From Trueperaceae bacterium (GTDB lineage Bacteria; Deinococcota; Deinococci; Deinococcales; Trueperaceae), in contig CBDCDZ010000004.1 of NCBI GenBank assembly GCA_965215565.1, forward strand, positions 224,001 through 288,000: 64,000 nucleotides of DNA, given 5' to 3'. Shown one piece after another: positions 37,072 to 50,799 of the stretch. The notes below the pieces were generated by a model, which saw nothing but the letters and a program-made list of their open reading frames with translations, was not told the DNA's origin and searched no databases. The translations under genes were made by a program, and so were the position numbers. Position 1 is the stretch's first letter; each line of letters begins with the position of its first letter.

Positions 37072-38169
37072 TTAAAAGCGCGACTTGTAAACTTTTTCGG
37101 TGAAGTCGAGCCAGGTGACTCTGGCGTTGGCTTGTCCTCGCCACCCCGGGGGCGGCTCGAGGCAGAGTTCGAAGTAGGCGGACTCGCCCTTGGCGATAGG
37201 GCCTTCCACCTCGCCCAAAACGAAGCGCTGAGCGCGTGTCTCTCCTCGCACCTCGAAGTCGACGACGACGGTGGCGGTGCGCAGATCATAAGCTTCGTTG
37301 CGCAGCGAGAGCGAGGCGCGCGTCTGACACGTGTCGCCTGAACCGAGCGTGAAGTCGGTGAGTCGGACGCGCGCTAGGTGCGGCAGCATCCGGCGACCTC
37401 GGCTCGCGGTGCGCGTGACGGCGGCTCGGGTCTCGCTATCTAAATTTGCAGCGAAGCGTCCTACTTCGGCTAGGAGGTCCTGCGCCTCCTGGAGCGCGCC
37501 GTCTGCGGCGAGCGTTTCGGCGCTCGCGAGCGCCGCCTCGACGCGCCACAAAGGGTAGGTAACGCGCCACGCGCCCTCCTCCTGGATCAGCTTGAAGCGG
37601 TGCCGCGTCTCTTTGAGGGGCGGCTGGCGCAAGTTACGCAGCGCTTGCGCCAGGCGCTGTTCCTGAACGACGCTGAGCGGGGCGTCAGGACGCCCGAGCG
37701 CCGCCGTGAACGTCCCTCCTAAACTCCGGTAGTCGGGTGCTACGAGCCGCGCGGTGGCGGCGGCGTAAGTCTCTGCGCGCACCACCTCGCTCACCTCGGT
37801 GAAGGCGACGCCCTCTTGCGCCGCCTCAGCATCCGTGATTACCTCAAGGCGCGCGCCGCCATACTGCGAGAAGAAGAGGTGCGGGTAAAGCTCGAAGCGC
37901 ACCCGCGACGAGAACGCCTCCTCGCTGATGACCTCTCTGTCGCCGCTGCTCAAGTAGCGGTACGCCCGCCCTACCTCTCCCGTTTGCAGGACTCGCCAAT
38001 AGTCCTCGGCGGTCTTTTCAAGCGGCGTTTGCGAACTGCAGGCGCTCAAGTAAAGAAAGGCGAGGAGCCACCCGAGTCGGTTGAGAGAGGGTGAAGCAGT
38101 GAACCGGACGGCACGCCGGGCTATCCGGCGAGCCAAGTCGAAAGTTTGAGAAAGGACCGTGATGCTCAT
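37072..38169 (-). CDS. Hypothetical lipoprotein
   Basis: Lipobox LSAC; AYRYLS...EGAWRV (NTF2/DUF4878-like by eye). Confidence 0.65.
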   Translation of the reverse strand: MSITVLSQTFDLARRIARRAVRFTASPSLNRLGWLLAFLYLSACSSQTPLEKTAEDYWRVLQTGEVGRAYRYLSSGDREVISEEAFSSRVRFELYPHLFFSQYGGARLEVITDAEAAQEGVAFTEVSEVVRAETYAAATARLVAPDYRSLGGTFTAALGRPDAPLSVVQEQRLAQALRNLRQPPLKETRHRFKLIQEEGAWRVTYPLWRVEAALASAETLAADGALQEAQDLLAEVGRFAANLDSETRAAVTRTASRGRRMLPHLARVRLTDFTLGSGDTCQTRASLSLRNEAYDLRTATVVVDFEVRGETRAQRFVLGEVEGPIAKGESAYFELCLEPPPGWRGQANARVTWLDFTEKVYKSRF

Positions 38170-41192: not shown

Positions 41193-41468
41193 TTAGTTCG
41201 TAGCTGGTAGATAAGCTACGTGAACTGTGACTACTGACAAGTCGAGCCCGAGCTTATCCTTGGCTAATTTTACAACGGCGCGGTTGACGAAACCCAAATC
41301 GACATCTCGCCAGCCGCTGCGTCTGCGGAGCACGAAACGAGACCCCGAGACGACGAGGGTGGCTTCCCATCTCACCCGCTGCTGGTAGTCCGTGTAAACG
41401 AGGACGCCATCCCCGTTTTGCAAGGTGATCGAGAGGTCTCGAGCACCCTGCTCGTAGTTGAACTGCAT
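41193..41468 (-). CDS. Hypothetical protein (91 aa ORFan)
   Basis: GAGGA RBS before ATG 41468; lies between two terminators. Confidence 0.6.
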   Translation of the reverse strand: MQFNYEQGARDLSITLQNGDGVLVYTDYQQRVRWEATLVVSGSRFVLRRRSGWRDVDLGFVNRAVVKLAKDKLGLDLSVVTVHVAYLPATN

Positions 41469-41525
41469 AACGCTTTCCTCATAGAAACTACCCGGTGAGT
41501 CTAACAAAGACGTTGCGCCCTCAAA

Positions 41526-41556
41526 TAAAAAAGCCCAGACCTGGTGAGTCTGAGCT
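41526..41556 (-). terminator. Intrinsic terminator after the 41603 ORF
   Basis: AGCTCAGAC-TCACCAG-GTCTGGGCT-TTTTT on the minus strand. Confidence 0.7.
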
Positions 41557-41602
41557 AGTAGAGGGCTAGGCCCTCGATGTTGCCGGAAAAGAGCAGCGTG
41601 AG

Positions 41603-42442
41603 TTACAAGGTGGCGAGCGCGAATAGCACGAAGTAATTTGTGAACATCCGCACGTAGGAACGCCGCGTGGTCAGCCAAGACGCCCGCATCTGCGGCGTGA
41701 CCACTTTGCCTCTTCTCTTGAGACTCGTCTCGGTCAATCGGACTGACAGCGCGATGACGAAACCTTGCAGATAGAGAGCGATAACGCCGCTGAGAAGCGC
41801 GAGGACAAACGACATGACGAGGTCGTATATGGAGACCTCAACCGTGCGCAGCTTCAGGGCTTCACTAGCCGTTAGCTGCAGAAACAGGTCCCCGCTCACT
41901 TGCGTCAGTAAGCTGGCTCCTACGGAGAATAGTGCGAGCACGCAAGCGTACATGGCGCAGAACTGGAGCCGTTTCCGCAGCGGTACTCGCTCCCCGTCAG
42001 GGCGTGAGAGGCTCGAGGTATATGCAAAATCTCCGCCTACTTTAAGAGGACCCCTGACGACCTCGAGGACGACGAGTGCGGTTGGCCAATCCTCAAGAAA
42101 AGGGATGAAGAACTGGAACATCCAGCCTACAAGGAGGGTGCTGCCGATGTTTTTCAGCAGCGTCTTTGCGCCCTCGGCTGTTTCCCACCGGGGTGAGAAT
42201 GGGCTGTGCGGCGGATGCGCCGTCTGTTCTTCAAGTTGCTCGGTCTGCTCCGCTTCTATACCTGCTCGAAAGCCTTGCCTATAGGCTTGGTCTTTCGCCC
42301 GCTCCAAGTCCCGCTGCAAGAGCAAGCGGCAGGCGTGGAGGTCTGCGCTGGTGAGATTTGCGGGGGCGACTGAGGGGCTCCCTACATCGCTCATCAAAAA
42401 GTCAAGTAGCTCTTTTCCGTTTTGTCGATTGTCATAGTTCAT
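41603..42442 (-). CDS. Hypothetical membrane protein (ORFan, 3-4 TM)
   Basis: Long ORF with hydrophobic helices; own terminator. Confidence 0.7.
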   Translation of the reverse strand: MNYDNRQNGKELLDFLMSDVGSPSVAPANLTSADLHACRLLLQRDLERAKDQAYRQGFRAGIEAEQTEQLEEQTAHPPHSPFSPRWETAEGAKTLLKNIGSTLLVGWMFQFFIPFLEDWPTALVVLEVVRGPLKVGGDFAYTSSLSRPDGERVPLRKRLQFCAMYACVLALFSVGASLLTQVSGDLFLQLTASEALKLRTVEVSIYDLVMSFVLALLSGVIALYLQGFVIALSVRLTETSLKRRGKVVTPQMRASWLTTRRSYVRMFTNYFVLFALATL

Positions 42443-42800
42443 GGCAAAGATTAAGTAAACGCCACCCCTAAATTAGCTTATTTTCGTCAGGGACGTGCAA
42501 GTAGAGACCGAACAAGGAGCTAAACGCGGAGGTGAAAGAGGAGAGGGACTGTATCTTTTTAGGCAACGCGCCCCTCTAGTTGTGCATTTCGCTGTCCTAA
42601 GCCCCTTAGAAGAGGTTAGATACCTCTTCAATCCGCAATTTAAGGTCTGAGTCTTGGGCATCTTGATAGCTTCCAACTATCGGAACGCTGTTCAACTAGC
42701 GTGTTAAGAAAATCACGGACCTTTCGCGGTGTTAGGCTGACTAAGCCCAGTGTAGAGGGGCAAAGGACAATGATAATTTAGGCTCCCCTCAGGGAGCAGG

Positions 42801-44837
42801 ATGAAAAAAATGTTGAGGAAAATCGCCGGTCTAGGGCTTGCCCTAGGCCTTGCTTTTACAGGTGCTGCCGTCAGCCCTGTAAAAGCAGTAGAAGAAGAGG
42901 TGCGCTCCGAGCGCATCTCACCCGTTCTCACTGAGAACGCCGCCAGCGCCGACGCTGGCAAAAAAGAAAAAGAGGTTGCGCCAGTCGCGCCTCTCGAAGG
43001 AGCCTTCTCCTTCGTACCCTTCAGTGGCAACACTGAAGCTGCTAGCGCCGACGCTAGCGAAGAAAAGAAAGAAGAGGTTGCACAAAGTGCGCCTCAAGCT
43101 CTCGGCGGCGAGAGCGAAGCGGCTGCACCAGCAGCCATGAATAATTGCGTCCCGTTCAAGCGGGTACGCTGTCATTCAAACGCGCCACCTGGCGCGGAAC
43201 CGGTAGTAGCGGGCCGTCCCGCTGCGCAAAATGTCGCTCATGACCCCCGGTCTGAGCGATTGGTAGGTAGAGGTGTTGACACCTCGAGCCTAGACAAGGC
43301 TTGGAAAAGGATTCATCAAGGGGCGGACATCAATATGTCGCCCCTTAATGACTATTGGAAGAGGCGACAGGAGGAAATCGCCCCTCCCCCCACCTCTTCG
43401 GAGGTGACGCCTTTACCAAAGGTGGAAACTGAGGCGCAACCTCACGCTCCGCCAGAGGGCAATAACCAAGCCGAGATCGACTCGGCACCGTCCAACCGCG
43501 AAAGGGTTGGAATAGAAAAAACCTCAACGGATGTTGAGGGAGGGGCACAAAATCAGGAGGAACCCGCCTCTCCTGCAATTGAAGTTGAACTTGATGAAGA
43601 GGTCATTGAAATACCGGAGGAGCCGACCTCTTCATCTGTCCAAAATGAATCAGAATCTGTGCAAATACAAGCACAGGAGGAACCAACTAAGACAGGTTCT
43701 GATTCTGTCACCGAGGGTGACAACCTTACAGACGAAGATGCGCAGGTTGAAGCGTCCGAATCTGTAGTTGAAGAAAATGTAGTACAAACACAGGAGGAAT
43801 CCGTAGATGAAGCGTCGGGAGGAAACGCCGGCCTAGAAGACAATGTTTCCACAAACGAGAGCGGAAATGCAGAGTCGCTCGAGTCACAAGAAAACCTAGA
43901 GGTACAGGAGATCTCCAACGAAGCGTCAGAGTCTGGGAAGGCTGACGCGGATTTAGAAGAAACTATTCCCGCAGACGAGAGCAACATCGGTGCAGATGAT
44001 GGGCTCGAGTCACAAGAAAACTTAGGAGTGCAGGAGACTCCCAATAACGAAGCGCCAGGGGACGGGAACCTTGACGCGGATTTAGAGGAAACGATTCCCG
44101 CCGACGAGAGTGAGATCGATGATGAACCGCTCGAGTCGGTTGAAGAAGTTGAAGAGGGTGGCCCCCCGGAAATTTCGACAAGTTTAGGATTCACCGGCGT
44201 CGGTGACGAAGAGGAAACCCCCACGTTTGATGTGGGCGTTGGCTTCGTCCAAGATGATTTCGGTGTTGAAACGATCATCAAAACCCCTGTCGGCGGGGGT
44301 GAAACAGCCGTAGACGCAGAAGTTACGCTACCTTTTTCTGAGATAACGTCTGTCAGCTTAAAAGCTGAAGACCTTCTCTCGGAAGGTAGCACCATTACTG
44401 CCAGTGCAGATATTCAAGTGTTGCCAAACTTGATCGTCAGCCCTGGCATCGAAAAATCCTCTGACGAGGCGCTCAAGACCAACCTGAGTGCAGCGTTACA
44501 GGCGACAGAAAATTTGGCTCTAGCCTTTGATATTGAAAACGTCGCAGCAGAACCCGTTTTCAATATCGAAAGTAACCTCGTGCTTGGCGAGCATGAGGTG
44601 GTAGCTAGAATCAAAGACGTGTCCAAAGCAGCACGGACATTCGATCTGGAGGGCTCTATCCAGGTTGTCGAATGGGCAAGAGCCCGCGTCAAATTCGAGA
44701 GCATTTTCAGTAGTCCAGTCGTAGGACTTGGGGCTGACCTTCAACTCACTCGCAGCACCGAGTTGAATGTCGGCGTCAACGACGCCTTTGGGTCCCAGAC
44801 CTACGACGCGAAAATTAAGTACACGTTTGGCTTGTAG
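42801..44837 (+). CDS. Secreted acidic repeat protein with probable C-terminal outer-membrane beta-barrel
   Basis: Signal peptide; Glu-rich repeats; amphipathic beta strands ending AKIKYTFGL. Confidence 0.75.
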   Translation: MKKMLRKIAGLGLALGLAFTGAAVSPVKAVEEEVRSERISPVLTENAASADAGKKEKEVAPVAPLEGAFSFVPFSGNTEAASADASEEKKEEVAQSAPQALGGESEAAAPAAMNNCVPFKRVRCHSNAPPGAEPVVAGRPAAQNVAHDPRSERLVGRGVDTSSLDKAWKRIHQGADINMSPLNDYWKRRQEEIAPPPTSSEVTPLPKVETEAQPHAPPEGNNQAEIDSAPSNRERVGIEKTSTDVEGGAQNQEEPASPAIEVELDEEVIEIPEEPTSSSVQNESESVQIQAQEEPTKTGSDSVTEGDNLTDEDAQVEASESVVEENVVQTQEESVDEASGGNAGLEDNVSTNESGNAESLESQENLEVQEISNEASESGKADADLEETIPADESNIGADDGLESQENLGVQETPNNEAPGDGNLDADLEETIPADESEIDDEPLESVEEVEEGGPPEISTSLGFTGVGDEEETPTFDVGVGFVQDDFGVETIIKTPVGGGETAVDAEVTLPFSEITSVSLKAEDLLSEGSTITASADIQVLPNLIVSPGIEKSSDEALKTNLSAALQATENLALAFDIENVAAEPVFNIESNLVLGEHEVVARIKDVSKAARTFDLEGSIQVVEWARARVKFESIFSSPVVGLGADLQLTRSTELNVGVNDAFGSQTYDAKIKYTFGL

Positions 44838-45314
44838 GGTTCGATCTCGAGCGGGTTAGCTACCGCTCGAGATCAGCTAAAAGCCAGCGTCTACTCGTCC
44901 TATCGCAGCACGGGCAGTAGACGAGACGACGTGTATCCTGAGGGGAGTGTCGCACTTTATGAGGTTACTCAAACGGTAATCTCGCTAGCATTCGCAGCAC
45001 GCTAGCTTAAAGTGTGACGAATCAATTTCAAGGTGTCAGACCCTGCCGAACCCTGCCGCCAAGGTAGGGAGTCATCTGTTTTTGTCTAACAGATAGTCTA
45101 GGGGAAGGCTGACCCGGCGTGCAGTTATGCACGCCGCCGAGCGAAAAAACGACGTGGGTACTTTGTACGTATCTGCGTTGCTGACGATGCCGAACTGTTT
45201 AGTGTTTTGTTTACACTAAATGGTCTTGGGTGATCCGGCGCGAAACTTGAAGTTTAATTTCAAAACCCTCTCTCGAGGTCAACCAGAACCCCTCCAAGGT
45301 TCTGGTTTTTTCTT
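44838..45314 (+). ncRNA. Candidate large structured RNA / 3' UTR ending in an intrinsic terminator
   Basis: About ten hairpins and two multibranch junctions read by eye; repeated loops; terminator at 45281-45314. Confidence 0.6.
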
Positions 45315-45339: not shown

Positions 45340-45804
45340 TAGCAGGTATCATCTGGTCAGAGACACTCTCACTCTACAAAACAATGTCTAGCACGCACTT
45401 TGAAGGATGATACCTGCGCTCATCCGTCTCAGTATGTTTTGGAACTGCCAAAAGTCTGTCTCACTACGTTCGGAGCTGGTTTGAGTGTACTAGCAGGTAT
45501 CATATGGTCAGTTACACTCTCACCAAAAAGAACATCGCCTAGCACGCACTTTCAGGGATGAAGTTCCGCAACGGCAGGGTGGCCTGCCCGTAACGCTAGT
45601 TCTTCGAACTGAGATCTGCGGAGAAGTGTTGCTTCGCATGACTTCGTCCAAGCAACGATAAGTGGAAGTGCTATACGCAATCTTGTGAAGCAATACTCTC
45701 ACTGTAGAAAATACTGCTCAGCACGCACATTATGAGATGAAATTCCGCTAGTCCTTACGGACAGAGACCTGCGGCACTCCGTCTCAATATACGGATACCT
45801 GCTA
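45340..45804. mobile_element. Cluster of MITE-like repeats (45340-45450, 45491-45673, about 45686-45804)
   Basis: Ends TAGCAGGTATC...GGAACTGCCA / GGAAGTGCTA / GATACCTGCTA; shared core AGCACGCAC..GATGA. Confidence 0.8.
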
Positions 45805-45937: not shown

Positions 45938-48265
45938 ATGCGATATTCGTTTGATCAGATGCGCAGCTTGCGCCTTTTGCTAACCTTTTTGCTGGGGTGT
46001 CTCGTATCAACGTACGGCTCAGCGCAGGTGGGCGAAAATCTCCTCCAAAACGCTAGCTTTGAAGGCGAGATTGGTTGGAATTTGGGAGTGGACGCTACTG
46101 CGCAAGCGAGCGGCGGCGTGGAGAGCGGCGCTTACTGCGCGGCGGTGGAGCGCGGTGGGGATGAGCCCTGGAGCGTCGCCCTGCGGCAAGACGACTTCGC
46201 GCTGACGAGCGGTCTCTACACGCTTAGCTTCAGCGCCTACAGTGCAGCCGAAGTTGACGCTAAGGTGGGCGTTAAGGTAGGTCAGGCGCAAGCGCCTTAC
46301 ACCGAATACTTTTACCAAGAGCGAACCGTACCAGGTGAGTCTACGCTCTACAGCTTCGAGGCTGAAATTTTCGTCGACGAACCCGATGCGCAGCTCGAGC
46401 TGTTTTTAGGTGGCTCCCTCGGCAACGAGGGCGCAGCGCTCTGCTTCGACGACGTCGTGCTGAGCAGGCTCGCGGCGGAAGAGCGCACTCGCGAGTTCCC
46501 TTACATCATGGTGGATCAGTTCGGCTATCGCCCGGTTGACCCGAAAGTCGCTGTGCTCGTCGATCCGCAAAGGGGCTTTAACGCGGACGACACGTACGTG
46601 CCGGGTGAATGGCTCGAGCTGCGCCGCGCCGACGACGAGCGCGTGGTCTTCCGAGCCGCGCCGACGCCGTGGCGAGAGGGCGACGTGCAGTCTACTTCGG
46701 GCGACAGAGGTTGGTGGCTCGACTTCAGCGAGGTCACGGAGCCGGGCAGCTACATCCTCTATGACCCCGACAACGAGGTACGCTCGTATCCTTTCGACAT
46801 CGCTGAGGATGTCTACCACGAGCCCTTCAAGGCGGCGGTGCGCATGTTCTACTACAACCGCGCCAACCTCGCCAAGGTAGAGCCCTACGCCGACCCGCGC
46901 TGGCGCGACGGACCGTCTTTTATGGGACCCGGACAGGATACCGAGGCGCGTTTCGTCGAGGATAAAGCGAACGTTTACACAGCGCGCGACCTCTCGGGCG
47001 GTTGGTTCGACGCGGGCGACTACAACAAATACGTGACCTTCGCCCACGCGCCGGTACACATGCTGCTCAGCGCGTATGAGCAAAACCGCGAGGTGTTCAC
47101 CGACGACTTTGACCTGCCCGAGTCGGGCAACGGTGTTCCTGACCTCATCGACGAACTCAAGTGGGAGTTCGACTGGCTCAAGAAGATGCAAGTCGCTGAG
47201 GGCGGGGTAATTATCAAAGTGGGCAATATCAACTTTAACGCGGTGTCGCCGCCGAGCGAGGACCCGCGCCCACGCTTTTACGGACCGCTCTGCTCTTCGT
47301 CTACCATTGCGGCGGCTAGCATGTTCGCCCACGGCGCGCTCGTCCTCCGCGACGTTGCGCCGCTCGCCGAGTACGCCGCAGACCTAGAGCGGCGTGCGGT
47401 GCGGGCGTGGCGCTGGTACGAAAAGAACCCCAAACGCGAGGACTGCGACACCCAAGAGATCAAAGCGGGGGACGCAGATCGCTCGCTCGCCGAGCAAGAC
47501 GCGATCCAAGCGGTGGCGGCGGTCTACCTCTTCGCCCTGACAGGCGAGCCGCACTACCAAGACACGCTCATGGAGACCTACGCCAGCACGCGCCCCTTCG
47601 CCGACGCCGCGCCGCGGTGGTCTATGTACAACCCCGCCGAGGGGGACGCGCTGCTCTACTACACCACCTTGAATGGGGCTGACCGCGCCCTGCAGCAGCG
47701 CGTCCGCGAGGCGAAAGTCGGCGGCGCTTACGGCGCGTCTAGAGCCATCTACCAATTCAAGGAGGTGCAAGACCTCTACCGCGCCTACCTGCCGGAGGAG
47801 TCTTACCACTGGGGCAGCAACTACGTGCGTTCGGCGCTCGGCAATACCAACTTAGACATGCTGCACTACAGTCTCGACATCGGGGCGCACCCCCTTTACG
47901 AAGCGAAGGCACTGGGCATCGTGCACTACCTACATGGTGTCAACCCGCTCAACCTGGTTTATCTGACCAACATGGCTGAATTTGGCGCGGAGCGCTCCGC
48001 GAGCCAGATGTGGCACGACTGGTTCGCTGACGGTACGGTCTGGGACGACGCTTTAACGAGCGAGCGCGGACCCGCGCCGGGTTATATAACAGGTGGACCC
48101 AACGCAGCTTACTCGGGTCAAGCCGCGCCGCCTGCAGGCGAGCCCGCGCAAAAGGCCTACCGAGACTGGAACTCAAACTCGGGTCAACCGTGGGAGATTA
48201 CCGAACCCGCCATCTACTATCAAGCTGCCTACGTGAGACTACTTGCGAACTTCTTGGCGCGCTGA
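45938..48265 (+). CDS. GH9 endoglucanase with CBM4/9 and CelD-type Ig domain
   Basis: VDQFGY, DLSGGWFDAGDYNK, WEITEPAIYY; signal peptide. Confidence 0.92.
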   Translation: MRYSFDQMRSLRLLLTFLLGCLVSTYGSAQVGENLLQNASFEGEIGWNLGVDATAQASGGVESGAYCAAVERGGDEPWSVALRQDDFALTSGLYTLSFSAYSAAEVDAKVGVKVGQAQAPYTEYFYQERTVPGESTLYSFEAEIFVDEPDAQLELFLGGSLGNEGAALCFDDVVLSRLAAEERTREFPYIMVDQFGYRPVDPKVAVLVDPQRGFNADDTYVPGEWLELRRADDERVVFRAAPTPWREGDVQSTSGDRGWWLDFSEVTEPGSYILYDPDNEVRSYPFDIAEDVYHEPFKAAVRMFYYNRANLAKVEPYADPRWRDGPSFMGPGQDTEARFVEDKANVYTARDLSGGWFDAGDYNKYVTFAHAPVHMLLSAYEQNREVFTDDFDLPESGNGVPDLIDELKWEFDWLKKMQVAEGGVIIKVGNINFNAVSPPSEDPRPRFYGPLCSSSTIAAASMFAHGALVLRDVAPLAEYAADLERRAVRAWRWYEKNPKREDCDTQEIKAGDADRSLAEQDAIQAVAAVYLFALTGEPHYQDTLMETYASTRPFADAAPRWSMYNPAEGDALLYYTTLNGADRALQQRVREAKVGGAYGASRAIYQFKEVQDLYRAYLPEESYHWGSNYVRSALGNTNLDMLHYSLDIGAHPLYEAKALGIVHYLHGVNPLNLVYLTNMAEFGAERSASQMWHDWFADGTVWDDALTSERGPAPGYITGGPNAAYSGQAAPPAGEPAQKAYRDWNSNSGQPWEITEPAIYYQAAYVRLLANFLAR

Positions 48266-48304
48266 CGGTTGACGCTCGAGACATACGCCGAGCCTATCCA
48301 AAGG

Positions 48305-48331
48305 AAAACGCCAGCGTTTAGGCTGGCGTTT
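48305..48331. terminator. Terminator between convergent genes
   Basis: AAACGCCAGC-GTTTAG-GCTGGCGTTT. Confidence 0.7.
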
Positions 48332-48348
48332 AAGACCGTAAGGGGTAA

Positions 48349-48714
48349 TTACGGTTTGTAAAAAGCTCTTAACCGGGCAACAGTCTGAAGTTGACGGAGC
48401 TGCCAAGTCGAGACTTCTCGGAACGCCTCGAGCCGAGCCTCAGTACAAAGCCGGAGCATCGCGAGTTCTCGGCGGTGCTCGCCTCCCCTGTCGGAGAGGT
48501 CAGCCTCGGCGTGCCGCTCCAACTCCCCGATGACCCGTAGCTGCACTGCCACGAGGTCAACGTCGAACGTGCCGAAAAGCTCGCGGCTACTGCCCTCCAT
48601 AAAGCAGTAGCACTGAGCGTCTGAAAACGGCTTGAGCTGCTCAGTACTTTCCAAGGTGAGCGCATCTTTCAACCTCAGCAGTTCTCCTCTGAGACCTTCG
48701 TATGGTTGTCTCAT
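48349..48714 (-). CDS. Hypothetical protein (ORFan)
   Basis: 121-aa ORF with a TATAAC just upstream and a terminator downstream. Confidence 0.55.
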   Translation of the reverse strand: MRQPYEGLRGELLRLKDALTLESTEQLKPFSDAQCYCFMEGSSRELFGTFDVDLVAVQLRVIGELERHAEADLSDRGGEHRRELAMLRLCTEARLEAFREVSTWQLRQLQTVARLRAFYKP

Positions 48715-49210
48715 GACGTTATACCGATAGTAATACTGAACTGAAAGAATGATGGCGTAAATTGAGAGCGTCTGAGGGTACGCGCTGAGAAGCCCTTAGC
48801 CAGAGGTCTAGCGGGAGCGGGACCACGCGACTGCATCTTTGAATCAACGCGCGTCGATAACGGCATAACACGCCCAGCTAAAGGCTCTTTTCCGCGCGGT
48901 TTAGATGTCAAAAGTACGATATCTAAACTTCACTTTAGTATAACAATCACGTTTAGCTTAACCTCTTGCGCGGCGCTTAAAGAAATTTAGGCAGCGCCGT
49001 CGCGCAGCCTAGCAACCTTGTCCGTTGACTTAACCCCACTCGCACGCTGAGCGCTTGCTATGCTCAGCATCAAGAACCATGCACCGCAAGCGGTTCTTAG
49101 AAAAGAAACTGCGGGGAAAGGAGGTCATCCTGAACGCTCTACGCATCTCGTTCGAAAAAACCAGCCCTTTGCCGTGGTTTCTGTCACTGCAAACTCTACA
49201 AAAGAAAAGA

Positions 49211-50078
49211 ATGACAGACACCAACAGAAAGTTCGCTGAGCGTGTGGCTCAGCTCGAAAGAAGACGCGCACAGAACGAAGCGCGCGCAAAAGAATATACG
49301 CCGTCAGGGAGCAAAGCGTTTTGCTCAGAGAGCGCGAGTTAGAGTCGCGTCTCGAGGCGTGCGACATCGTGCTCACGGGCGATGAGCGCGAGCTTAATAA
49401 ATGTGAGACAAGACTCCTTATTCTGGAGCAAGAGCTTCAGAGTAAAGAAGAGGTTGTCGCCGAGTTGGAGAAGCGCATCGTGCGCCCTTCAGATTCGGAA
49501 GCGCCTTCACTGAGCAAACTGGAAGCTCGAGAAGCGCAAGTAGATGAGGCTGATGCGCGCGTTAGTCAACTCGAAAAGGCGCTCTCTAGGCGAGACGTTG
49601 TCTCCGACGCGCCGCATGTCGAGATAGAGGCAGCGCCAGCCCTGCCGGAACAGGAGCTTAACGTCAGCTCCGCTGACGATCCTTGGAAAGCGCCTGAAGG
49701 CGCTCAAGCTGGAGCGCAACCGAGTGCTCTAAGCCCTTCAGAAGAGGCTGAAGCGCCCGAAGTCGAAGAGGCTGAACAGGCTCCGCCTGAAACGCCCGAA
49801 GAAGCCGAACGTGCAGAACGCGCACGTGACCGGGCTAAAAAGGTCCTGGGATACCTACGTGGTTATGGACGACTGCAGGGTTCGCCGGAATCCTCAGCTA
49901 CATCATAGTTCTTAGCCTCGCTTTCGCGCCGGCTCCATACACCCCTTCGTGGGGACCTGCCGTCCGCTACTTCTTCGAGGGCGATCAGCAGAAAAAGCTG
50001 GAGGAAATCCAGAAGCGAAATGCCGAGCTGGAAAAATTGAAAGAAGAGAAGGAGCGTCAGGAGGACCCCACCCGCTAG
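49211..50078 (+). pseudogene. Coiled-coil plus single-TM protein split by two frameshifts
   Basis: Joining frames at about 49295 (GAATATACGCC) and about 49850 (CTGGGATA) gives one coherent protein ending ..EKERQEDPTR*. Confidence 0.65.
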
Positions 50079-50374
50079 AACTTTGACAGTTCGTTAGATG
50101 AGATACCTCGAGCATCCCTTCCCTACGCTGCACTTAGGGAAAATGAGCGCCGCTGCACTCTGCGCTTCTCTTGTGAGCCTCGAGGTTGAGAAGAGGACTT
50201 CTTGGTGAGCACTGCTGCACCGCTCCACCCAGGAAACCGCCTCTACGCTCGTCCGCTCTACGGGCGAGTATCTCTTGGGTCAACGCATCTTCTACATGTG
50301 TTGACCGCGTTTACGGGTGAGAAACCATCCTTTTCTCACTTCTGAATAGACCCCGACTGGGGTCTATTTTTTTT
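50079..50374 (+). ncRNA. Candidate structured RNA / 3' UTR ending in an intrinsic terminator
   Basis: Hairpins with GCTGCAC x3 and (C/T)TCTAC x3; terminator AATAGACCCC-GACT-GGGGTCTATT followed by a T run. Confidence 0.55.
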
Positions 50375-50400
50375 GCTCCTGTGGCGGTTTGAACAGAGGT

Positions 50401-50537
50401 GTAATACCCTTTCCGGTTAAACACGCTACAAAGTAGTGTGTTTAATCCCGAACAGAGTGAGTAGAAACAGCGACGGATTCCGGTGAGTAGCGGAAAAATG
50501 CGAATGCATTTTGTAGTGGATTCACCCGGAATCCGTA
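50401..50537. repeat. SNR-like small dispersed repeat (inverted homologue of 18059-18298, without the insert)
   Basis: Reverse complement aligns with 18059-18108 and 18210-18298. Confidence 0.8.
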
Positions 50538-50799
50538 TAAATCACGCTAACTTGAAATTGGCGAGTCATGGGAAAGAAATCACAAATGATATTGTTAGGT
50601 CTTATTTTAAGAGGATAGGCTAGCGGGGTAGTCGTGTGAAGTTTGAAGAGGTAGAGTTGTATAAGCTGAGGTGCAAACACAGGTTTCATAAGCGAAAGCG
50701 TCAGGAAGATTAAAGAAGGGGAGATGTAAGCGGAAAGCTCACATCTTAAAGTCCCCGAAAGACGCTCAGATTAGCTCTGAGCACCTAAAATGTGTCGGA

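Follow-up and report, generated by a model that had tools for sequence, protein, structure and literature searches.

This locus raises the question of whether a densely folded stretch of about 480 nt, lying downstream of a long open reading frame, is an RNA in its own right or the end of a larger molecule. The window analyzed here is the whole 64,000-nt stretch of DNA, and positions refer to it unless another locus is named. A preliminary description of 44838-45314 had listed a series of helices, repeated loops and a closing terminator, and had proposed either a new large ncRNA or a multivalent protein-binding 3' UTR. All of the helices it named were recovered in place, with mean pair probabilities in the full-length ensemble of 0.94-1.0 (44843/44874, 1.0; 44888/44923, 0.99; 44949/45018, 0.98; 45051/45069, 1.0; 45074/45094, 0.98; 45115/45136, 0.94; 45194/45224, 0.97; terminator 45281/45307, 0.98), except for the GTCAG/CTGAC closure of one junction, the sole weak helix of the tail (p 0.49). 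The excess stability that such a proposal calls for was present: the segment folds with an MFE of -196.3 kcal/mol and a z of -7.67 on the + strand, equalled by none of 100 dinucleotide shuffles, and the reverse strand gave a z of -4.67. No ORF of at least 60 aa lies within 44838-45314, and there were no Rfam gathering matches, tRNA or tmRNA in the window, in agreement with the earlier view that hallmarks of RNase P, tmRNA and introns are absent. Near the tail the only Rfam matches were at chance level (E 4.6 and 5.4). The closing terminator, a hairpin followed by a U tract, was also found.

The folded tail is thus real, but it is not the whole feature, as folding begins about 2.3 kb upstream rather than at 44838. 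In sliding windows the excess runs from about 42600 to 45300, through an entire 678-aa ORF, and the segment described first is the last sixth of an over-folded unit (42540-45314; Table 1). The 5' limit was set by folding alone and the start is possibly as early as ~42463. The unit has an MFE of -1164, whereas 12 mononucleotide shuffles averaged -921.8 ± 10.9 (Z about -22), and 65% of it is paired. In a composition-corrected scan of all four contigs (29,938 windows of 150 nt), this locus was the most over-folded 0.6-, 1.2- and 2.4-kb stretch of the 4.49-Mb genome; by a simple hairpin count it ranked second. The 16S rRNA of the same genome gave a Z of -3.5 and the adjoining GH9 gene -1.6. The same kind of measure, in PMC13082091, gives -19 for MS2, -5 for E. 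coli 23S rRNA and -1 for an ordinary mRNA. Computationally, the message is folded from end to end, the acidic linker of the ORF being the only weakly folded part. We infer a single transcript for the whole unit, and the terminal hairpin and U tract imply DNA-templated transcription. A search upstream of the leader found no sigma-70 promoter, and two weak matches elsewhere were at chance level. The unit is single-copy in the genome.

Table 1. Features of the over-folded unit and of its sister units (window positions unless a contig is given).
Feature	Position	Strand	Evidence
Over-folded transcription unit, putative monocistronic mRNA	42540-45314	+	folding scans, whole-unit Z
Structured 5' leader	42540-42800	+	folding
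Hairpin burying Shine-Dalgarno-like GGGAG before ATG 42801	42782-42797	+	p 0.89
678-aa ORF: signal peptide, acidic low-complexity linker, C-terminal beta-barrel	42801-44837	+	ORF list, homologues
Densest-hairpin coding part, codons 1-225, mainly Watson-Crick stems	42801-43475	+	synonymous z -10.5, -5.7, -4.0
Acidic linker, ~135-nt internal duplication (43877-44011 / 44003-44137)	43700-44150	+	folding, synonymous permutation
Predicted 16-strand porin-like barrel coding region, also over-folded	44163-44834	+	pLDDT 92.4; Foldseek; synonymous z -6.3
Long-range arm; with tail 45185-45192 it encloses a 3' domain of ~1 kb	44195-44202	+	p 0.88 local fold, 0.79 full-length
Coding hairpin, GCAGCA at 44544, Ala-Ala frame	44526-44570	+	folding
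Weak coding hairpin, GCAGCAC at 44628, Ala-Ala frame	44618-44635	+	p 0.42
Coding hairpin, loop ACUCGCAGCACC, Arg-Ser frame (GCAGCA 44752)	44740-44767	+	folding
Structured 3' tail, 477 nt	44838-45314	+	folding z, pair probabilities
Tail hairpin, loop UAUCGCAGCAC	44888-44923	+	folding, ensemble
Tail segment complementary to 5' arm and loop of the ribosome-binding-site hairpin	44937-44948	+	duplex energy
Three-way junction with third UCGCAGCAC loop (44990-45000)	44948-45019	+	folding, ensemble
Three hairpins with UUUGU loops (45081, 45162, 45206)	45074-45224	+	loop lists
Intrinsic terminator, 10-bp stem and U tract	45281-45314	+	terminator search, ensemble
L008, 876-aa orphan ORF, weak C-terminal GNAT match	G000:C4 2827202-2829832 (L008 1702-4332)	-	Z -12.8
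L009, phrog_6160 gene	G000:C4 3582040-3582918 (L009 2040-2918)	+	Z -10.1
L010, amylase-like and MFS pair	G000:C4 ~4369000-4374200 (L010 3000-8200)		Z -13.0

The structure runs on from the coding sequence into the tail, with helices that bridge the stop codon (44819/44936, p 0.94; 44828/44886, p 0.97), which argues against the new stand-alone large ncRNA of the preliminary description. A covariance model of the core, built from one sequence (138 nt), matched the present genome alone among 128 genomes and gave no gene-less copy in the 127 family genomes. The other proposal, a multivalent 3' UTR, stands as a candidate: the tail begins directly behind the stop codon and runs to an intrinsic terminator, and it has its loop motif and long-range helices in common with the upstream coding region. 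Read-through of the stop codon, which is followed by 55 open codons after TAG, was ruled out because the homologues of the protein stop at the same barrel terminus. Very probably, then, this segment is the 3' end of an mRNA that is over-folded throughout, and not an independent ncRNA.

The repeated loops are a less simple matter. The copies that had been reported in the tail are present, but two occurrences of a 9-mer within 477 nt are no more than chance would give (268 of 1000 shuffles), and the repetition is significant only when copies in the coding region are counted. Within the unit, GCAGCA occurs at 44544, 44628, 44752, 44905 and 44994 and nowhere else; likewise TTTGT is limited to the three sites in Table 1, of which that at 45162 is additional to the two first noticed. 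Four of the five GCAGCA copies are in clear loops, distributed over two reading frames and the tail, and four MFE loops carry the motif against a maximum of 2 in 35 folded shuffles. A triple 9-mer arose in only 8 of 1000 shuffles, yet also in 173 of 1099 natural windows. Across the genome hairpin loops hold 79 of the 3707 GCAGCA sites and 207 of the 5689 TTTGT sites, and no other locus has at least three such loops of either motif within 1 kb. The coding copies, falling in an Ala-Ala and an Arg-Ser frame, point to selection at the RNA level. By eye, kissing between GCAGCA and UUUGU loops appeared weak. In viral sequences at least 120 stretches had two TCGCAGCAC copies; none of the 80 examined had both copies in hairpin loops and none had BLAST similarity. 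CsrB/RsmZ-type sponges present one short motif, GGA, in several loops on unrelated stems. The unit shares this manner of display, at a frequency above chance, but its loops are GCAGCA and UUUGU rather than GGA, they are embedded in an mRNA and there is no Rfam match.

Processing of the message might still release the tail alone, or 44195-45314 (~1 kb), as an ornate ncRNA acting as a protein sponge or as a ROOL/GOLLD-like assembly, a homo-oligomer of RNA joined by kissing loops or A-minor bridges. Multiway junctions, repeated loops, the self-closing 44195/45192 helix, a Z of -10.8 for 44163-45314 folded alone and the confinement of the loop motifs to the 3' 800 nt would all suit such a product. 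ROOL, GOLLD and OLE, as described in PMC12286853, similarly extend over hundreds of nt of multiway junctions, and ROOL and GOLLD are linked there to mobile elements. However, the 5' coding part is folded even more strongly than the proposed product, helices cross the stop codon and no gene-less copy was found in 127 family genomes. The unit also differs from those RNAs in having no Rfam match and no tRNA in the window, and in a structure that crosses a conserved protein-coding gene; it is not a stand-alone non-coding locus of the kind often found near tRNA islands in phages and prophages. We consider processing to a separate RNA unlikely.

The protein itself matched no Pfam, PHROGs or NCBIfam family. 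Its signal peptide was read by eye. The model of the C-terminal domain is closest to porins (Foldseek TM ~0.64-0.68, identity 13% or less), and an ESM Atlas search gave weak porin-like leads only. In prediction it has the attributes of an outer-membrane porin, namely a closed 16-strand barrel, a C-terminal aromatic residue and a signal peptide, and the modelled product is thus a putative orphan outer-membrane beta-barrel of porin-like type. It has the same barrel fold as the 16-strand porins of R. blastica (1PRN) and Veillonella (OmpM1, 8BYT), but the sequences are far apart and the predicted barrel has minimal loops and a long acidic N-terminal linker. The N-terminal architecture of OmpM1 is an SLH/coiled-coil stalk.

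Eleven homologues of the protein were found among 1.84 billion representatives and a second search added one (about 12 in all). Ten were looked up, and all are singletons from metagenomic sources. Full-length homologues all begin with a signal-peptide-like segment, followed by a low-complexity linker that varies among them and by the C-terminal domain. The host is probably a member of the Trueperaceae (Deinococcota). The gene was found in 0 of 127 family genomes and 0 of 363 phylum genomes, a DNA query retrieved homologous DNA from 0 of 60 relatives, and pattern scans of genomes, metagenomes and viral contigs confirmed no relative. One protein match among the 60 relatives (G035, E 4.6e-4) was rejected because it proved to be a frame on the strand opposite a housekeeping gene. 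In comparison with two genomes of the same genus, the surrounding 16 kb matched essentially at intergenic repeats only.

Copies of this genus-wide repeat, ~110-180 nt with an internal inverted repeat, lie at 45340-45800 and also at ~48730-48950 and 50390-50550. It gave 317 BLAST matches in the genome (154 of at least 80 nt) and dozens in each of the two same-genus genomes. It is MITE/REP-like, has no Rfam match and is separate from the tail. Moderate over-folding was also seen at 48100-50500, with orphan ORFs at 48349-48714 and 49321-49908. On the other side, 41193-42442 on the - strand holds two divergent orphan ORFs and a folded terminator region (41400-41600, - strand z -5.8).

As a proxy for nucleotide covariation, for which no homologous DNA was retrieved, we asked whether the residues of the homologues still permit the predicted pairs of the barrel region, with folds of synonymous permutations as the null. 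For eight homologues pooled, 8.0% of barrel-region pairs were forced broken against 11.7 ± 1.5% in the null (0 of 261 as low), and for five distant homologues 11.2% against 16.8 ± 2.2% (0 of 261 as low). Taken singly, the effect was clear for P0003, P0005 and P0006 only; the close homologues alone were not significant, and the N-terminal region went in the same direction without reaching significance. The test is indirect, as the homologues are not independent and the codon periodicity of beta-hairpins may contribute; slid-partner controls were biased and were left out. Nucleotide sequence from a relative was found in sequencing run X3, where a contig piece covers 44634-45100 with 28 other letters and 8 gaps at a depth of 4.8. 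This piece crosses the stop codon into the tail, so the relative has the coding sequence and the tail together. A second X3 contig (depth 8.5) joins a match to the gene at 37072-38169 (37929) to the terminator (45311) in opposite orientation and shows changes at 43016-43021, suggesting that a relative carries the unit in another arrangement.

Three further clear over-folded outliers, L008, L009 and L010, emerged from the genome scan (Table 1). The L009 gene faces the 3' end of a 16S rRNA gene in convergent orientation, and its C-terminal motif presumably resembles that of AcrVA2/FinQ-like proteins. The L010 cluster combines ~600 nt of folded non-coding sequence, small ORFs that have terminators of their own, and a divergent amylase-like gene with MFS; its terminator loop is identical to that of L008. 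The over-folded genes of L008 and L010 had no match in the two same-genus genomes. Of 127 family genomes, none had L008 and two had L009. Those two homologues of L009, in G010 and G068, show normal folding, and over-folding is thus not a fixed trait of each gene family. The sister units have no sequence, termini or loop motif in common with the porin unit. A separate locus, L011 (G000:C4 2657500-2661000), is an array of small ORFs with repeated ~60-nt modules between them and folded intergenic RNA, and resembles a phage early region.

L008 is homologous to ORF68L of cyanophage MaMV-DC (32% identity), which has the same monocistronic layout and is over-folded on its sense strand (Z -9.0 against +0.6 for a control stretch). 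Of 113 bins of the phage genome, five had a mean z of -2 or below, all within 37.5-60 kb. The 37.5-61 kb region (L165/L166/L167) is the one strongly over-folded part of this phage and carries repeat-bounded cassettes gained or lost relative to LMM01; the ORF68L-67L block is missing from LMM01 and is bounded by ~195-bp direct repeats. Mapped by synteny onto the gp054-gp063 early block given in PMC5780444, it adjoins that block and is not inside it. The ORF68L block differs from the porin unit in that MaMV-DC has no homologue of the barrel gene and no loop motif or sequence in common with the unit.

Folding of this extent raises the possibility of a DNA copy of an RNA replicon, either a satellite or virus segment, or of an RNA-mobilised cassette, in which case the folding would be a trace of earlier replication or packaging as RNA and the repeated loops would be packaging signals. 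The Z of about -22 is below the -15 that, in PMC13082091, distinguishes ssRNA phages. Like the genomes of MS2-type phages, the unit is coding RNA folded over its full length, with long-range pairings. Closure of the 5' and 3' ends (42540-42547 with 45266-45273, p 0.84 in the ensemble), a dispersed common loop motif and the occurrence of isolated, strain-specific units would also fit. The unit differs in being chromosomal DNA with an intrinsic U-tract terminator and a single ORF for a predicted secreted beta-barrel. It has no RdRp, levivirus coat or maturation protein match in Pfam or PHROGs, and Pfam found no replicase, coat or RT family among the 33 window ORFs scanned. There were no terminal repeats, no target duplication and no termini common to copies, only a 7-nt inverted match (42541/45266), and the direct repeats that bound the phage sister cassette fit DNA recombination. 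An RNA replicon or RNA-mobilised cassette is improbable.

A similarly small chance attaches to selection of the structure in single-stranded DNA, as a transfer or injection intermediate like the leading regions of plasmids, rather than in RNA. When folded with DNA parameters, the 5' coding half scores better on the - strand (z -12.0 and -13.2) than on the + strand (-9.9 and -8.9). The folding of this half is strand-symmetric and its strand tests are ambiguous. Structure of ssDNA matters in leading regions according to PMC13478746, although what is covered there is local ssDNA promoters and not gene-long folding. In contrast, the 3' half including the tail favours + strand RNA (z -5.2/-8.5/-4.4 against -1.6/-5.9/-1.6), and in all four sister units the sense strand is the better folded one and the richer in G-U. 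Interior G-T outnumbered A-C by only 8 to 4.

Permutation of synonymous codons with the protein fixed abolished the folding signal (0 of 40 and 0 of 25 permuted folds equal). Successive blocks of codons 1-300 gave synonymous z values of -10.5, -5.7, -4.0 and -2.4, whereas the acidic linker (codons 301-375) stood at +0.85, codons 376-450 at -2.75 and the barrel at -6.3. Thus, although the RNA hairpin at 44526-44570 coincides with a beta-hairpin, a by-product of alternating barrel codons and low-complexity sequence is largely refuted and hardly tenable, the low-complexity linker being the least folded part and the non-coding leader and tail being folded too.

The pairing of the tail extends to the translation start. 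The tail segment 44937-44948 can form a 12-bp duplex with 42782-42793 (-31 kcal/mol; 0 of 60 shuffles as good). This duplex came to attention post hoc and is a minority conformation in the ensemble (p 0.09 against 0.89 for the hairpin that buries the ribosome-binding site). The starts of L008 and L010 had no comparable outlier duplex. With these elements the tail may be read as the end of a ~2.8-kb nuclease-shielded, self-gating mRNA for an orphan barrel, carried on a mobile DNA cassette, with its loops as docking sites; we regard the case for this full account as evenly balanced. The unit would be one of several over-folded, strain-specific cassettes in the genome, and its most likely source would be a mobile element, for example the accessory region of a large phage. 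Phages and plasmids gave no match to the barrel, so the phage origin is by analogy only. Dense folding would expose little single-stranded RNA at which host endonucleases or guide RNAs could gain access, and give a long-lived message. The tail would lock the molecule shut by its helices to the barrel region and to the 5' end, and 44937-44948 may displace the hairpin that hides the ribosome-binding site, in which case only full-length (or protein-bound) transcripts would be translated. The GCAGCA and UUUGU loops could offer multivalent contacts, either to a protein or in tertiary packing.

A broader reading would place the unit in an undescribed class of "armoured" cassettes, found in bacteria and large DNA phages, whose whole mRNAs fold like RNA-phage genomes; the porin unit, through closure of its ends, a translation switch worked by the tail and repeated recognition loops, would be built for protection, packaging or cell-to-cell passage as RNA. 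We hold this to be doubtful. Guide-RNA resistance and packaging loops are pressures that the authors of PMC13082091 suspect for RNA phages. A literature search, with most subscription journals outside its reach, found no account of DNA-encoded mRNAs folded in this way. According to PMC13082091, ssRNA phages are now recognized by a whole-length Z of -15 or lower, and in one dataset RdRp left 54.8% of the ultrastable contigs unclassified. A chromosomal porin mRNA with a Z of about -22, together with three sister units and an over-folded homologue in a DNA cyanophage, suggests a separate class of hyper-folded mRNAs of cells and phages, which could explain part of those unclassified contigs. With such a class it could be tested directly whether mobile genes escape the RNA surveillance of their host through extreme mRNA structure.
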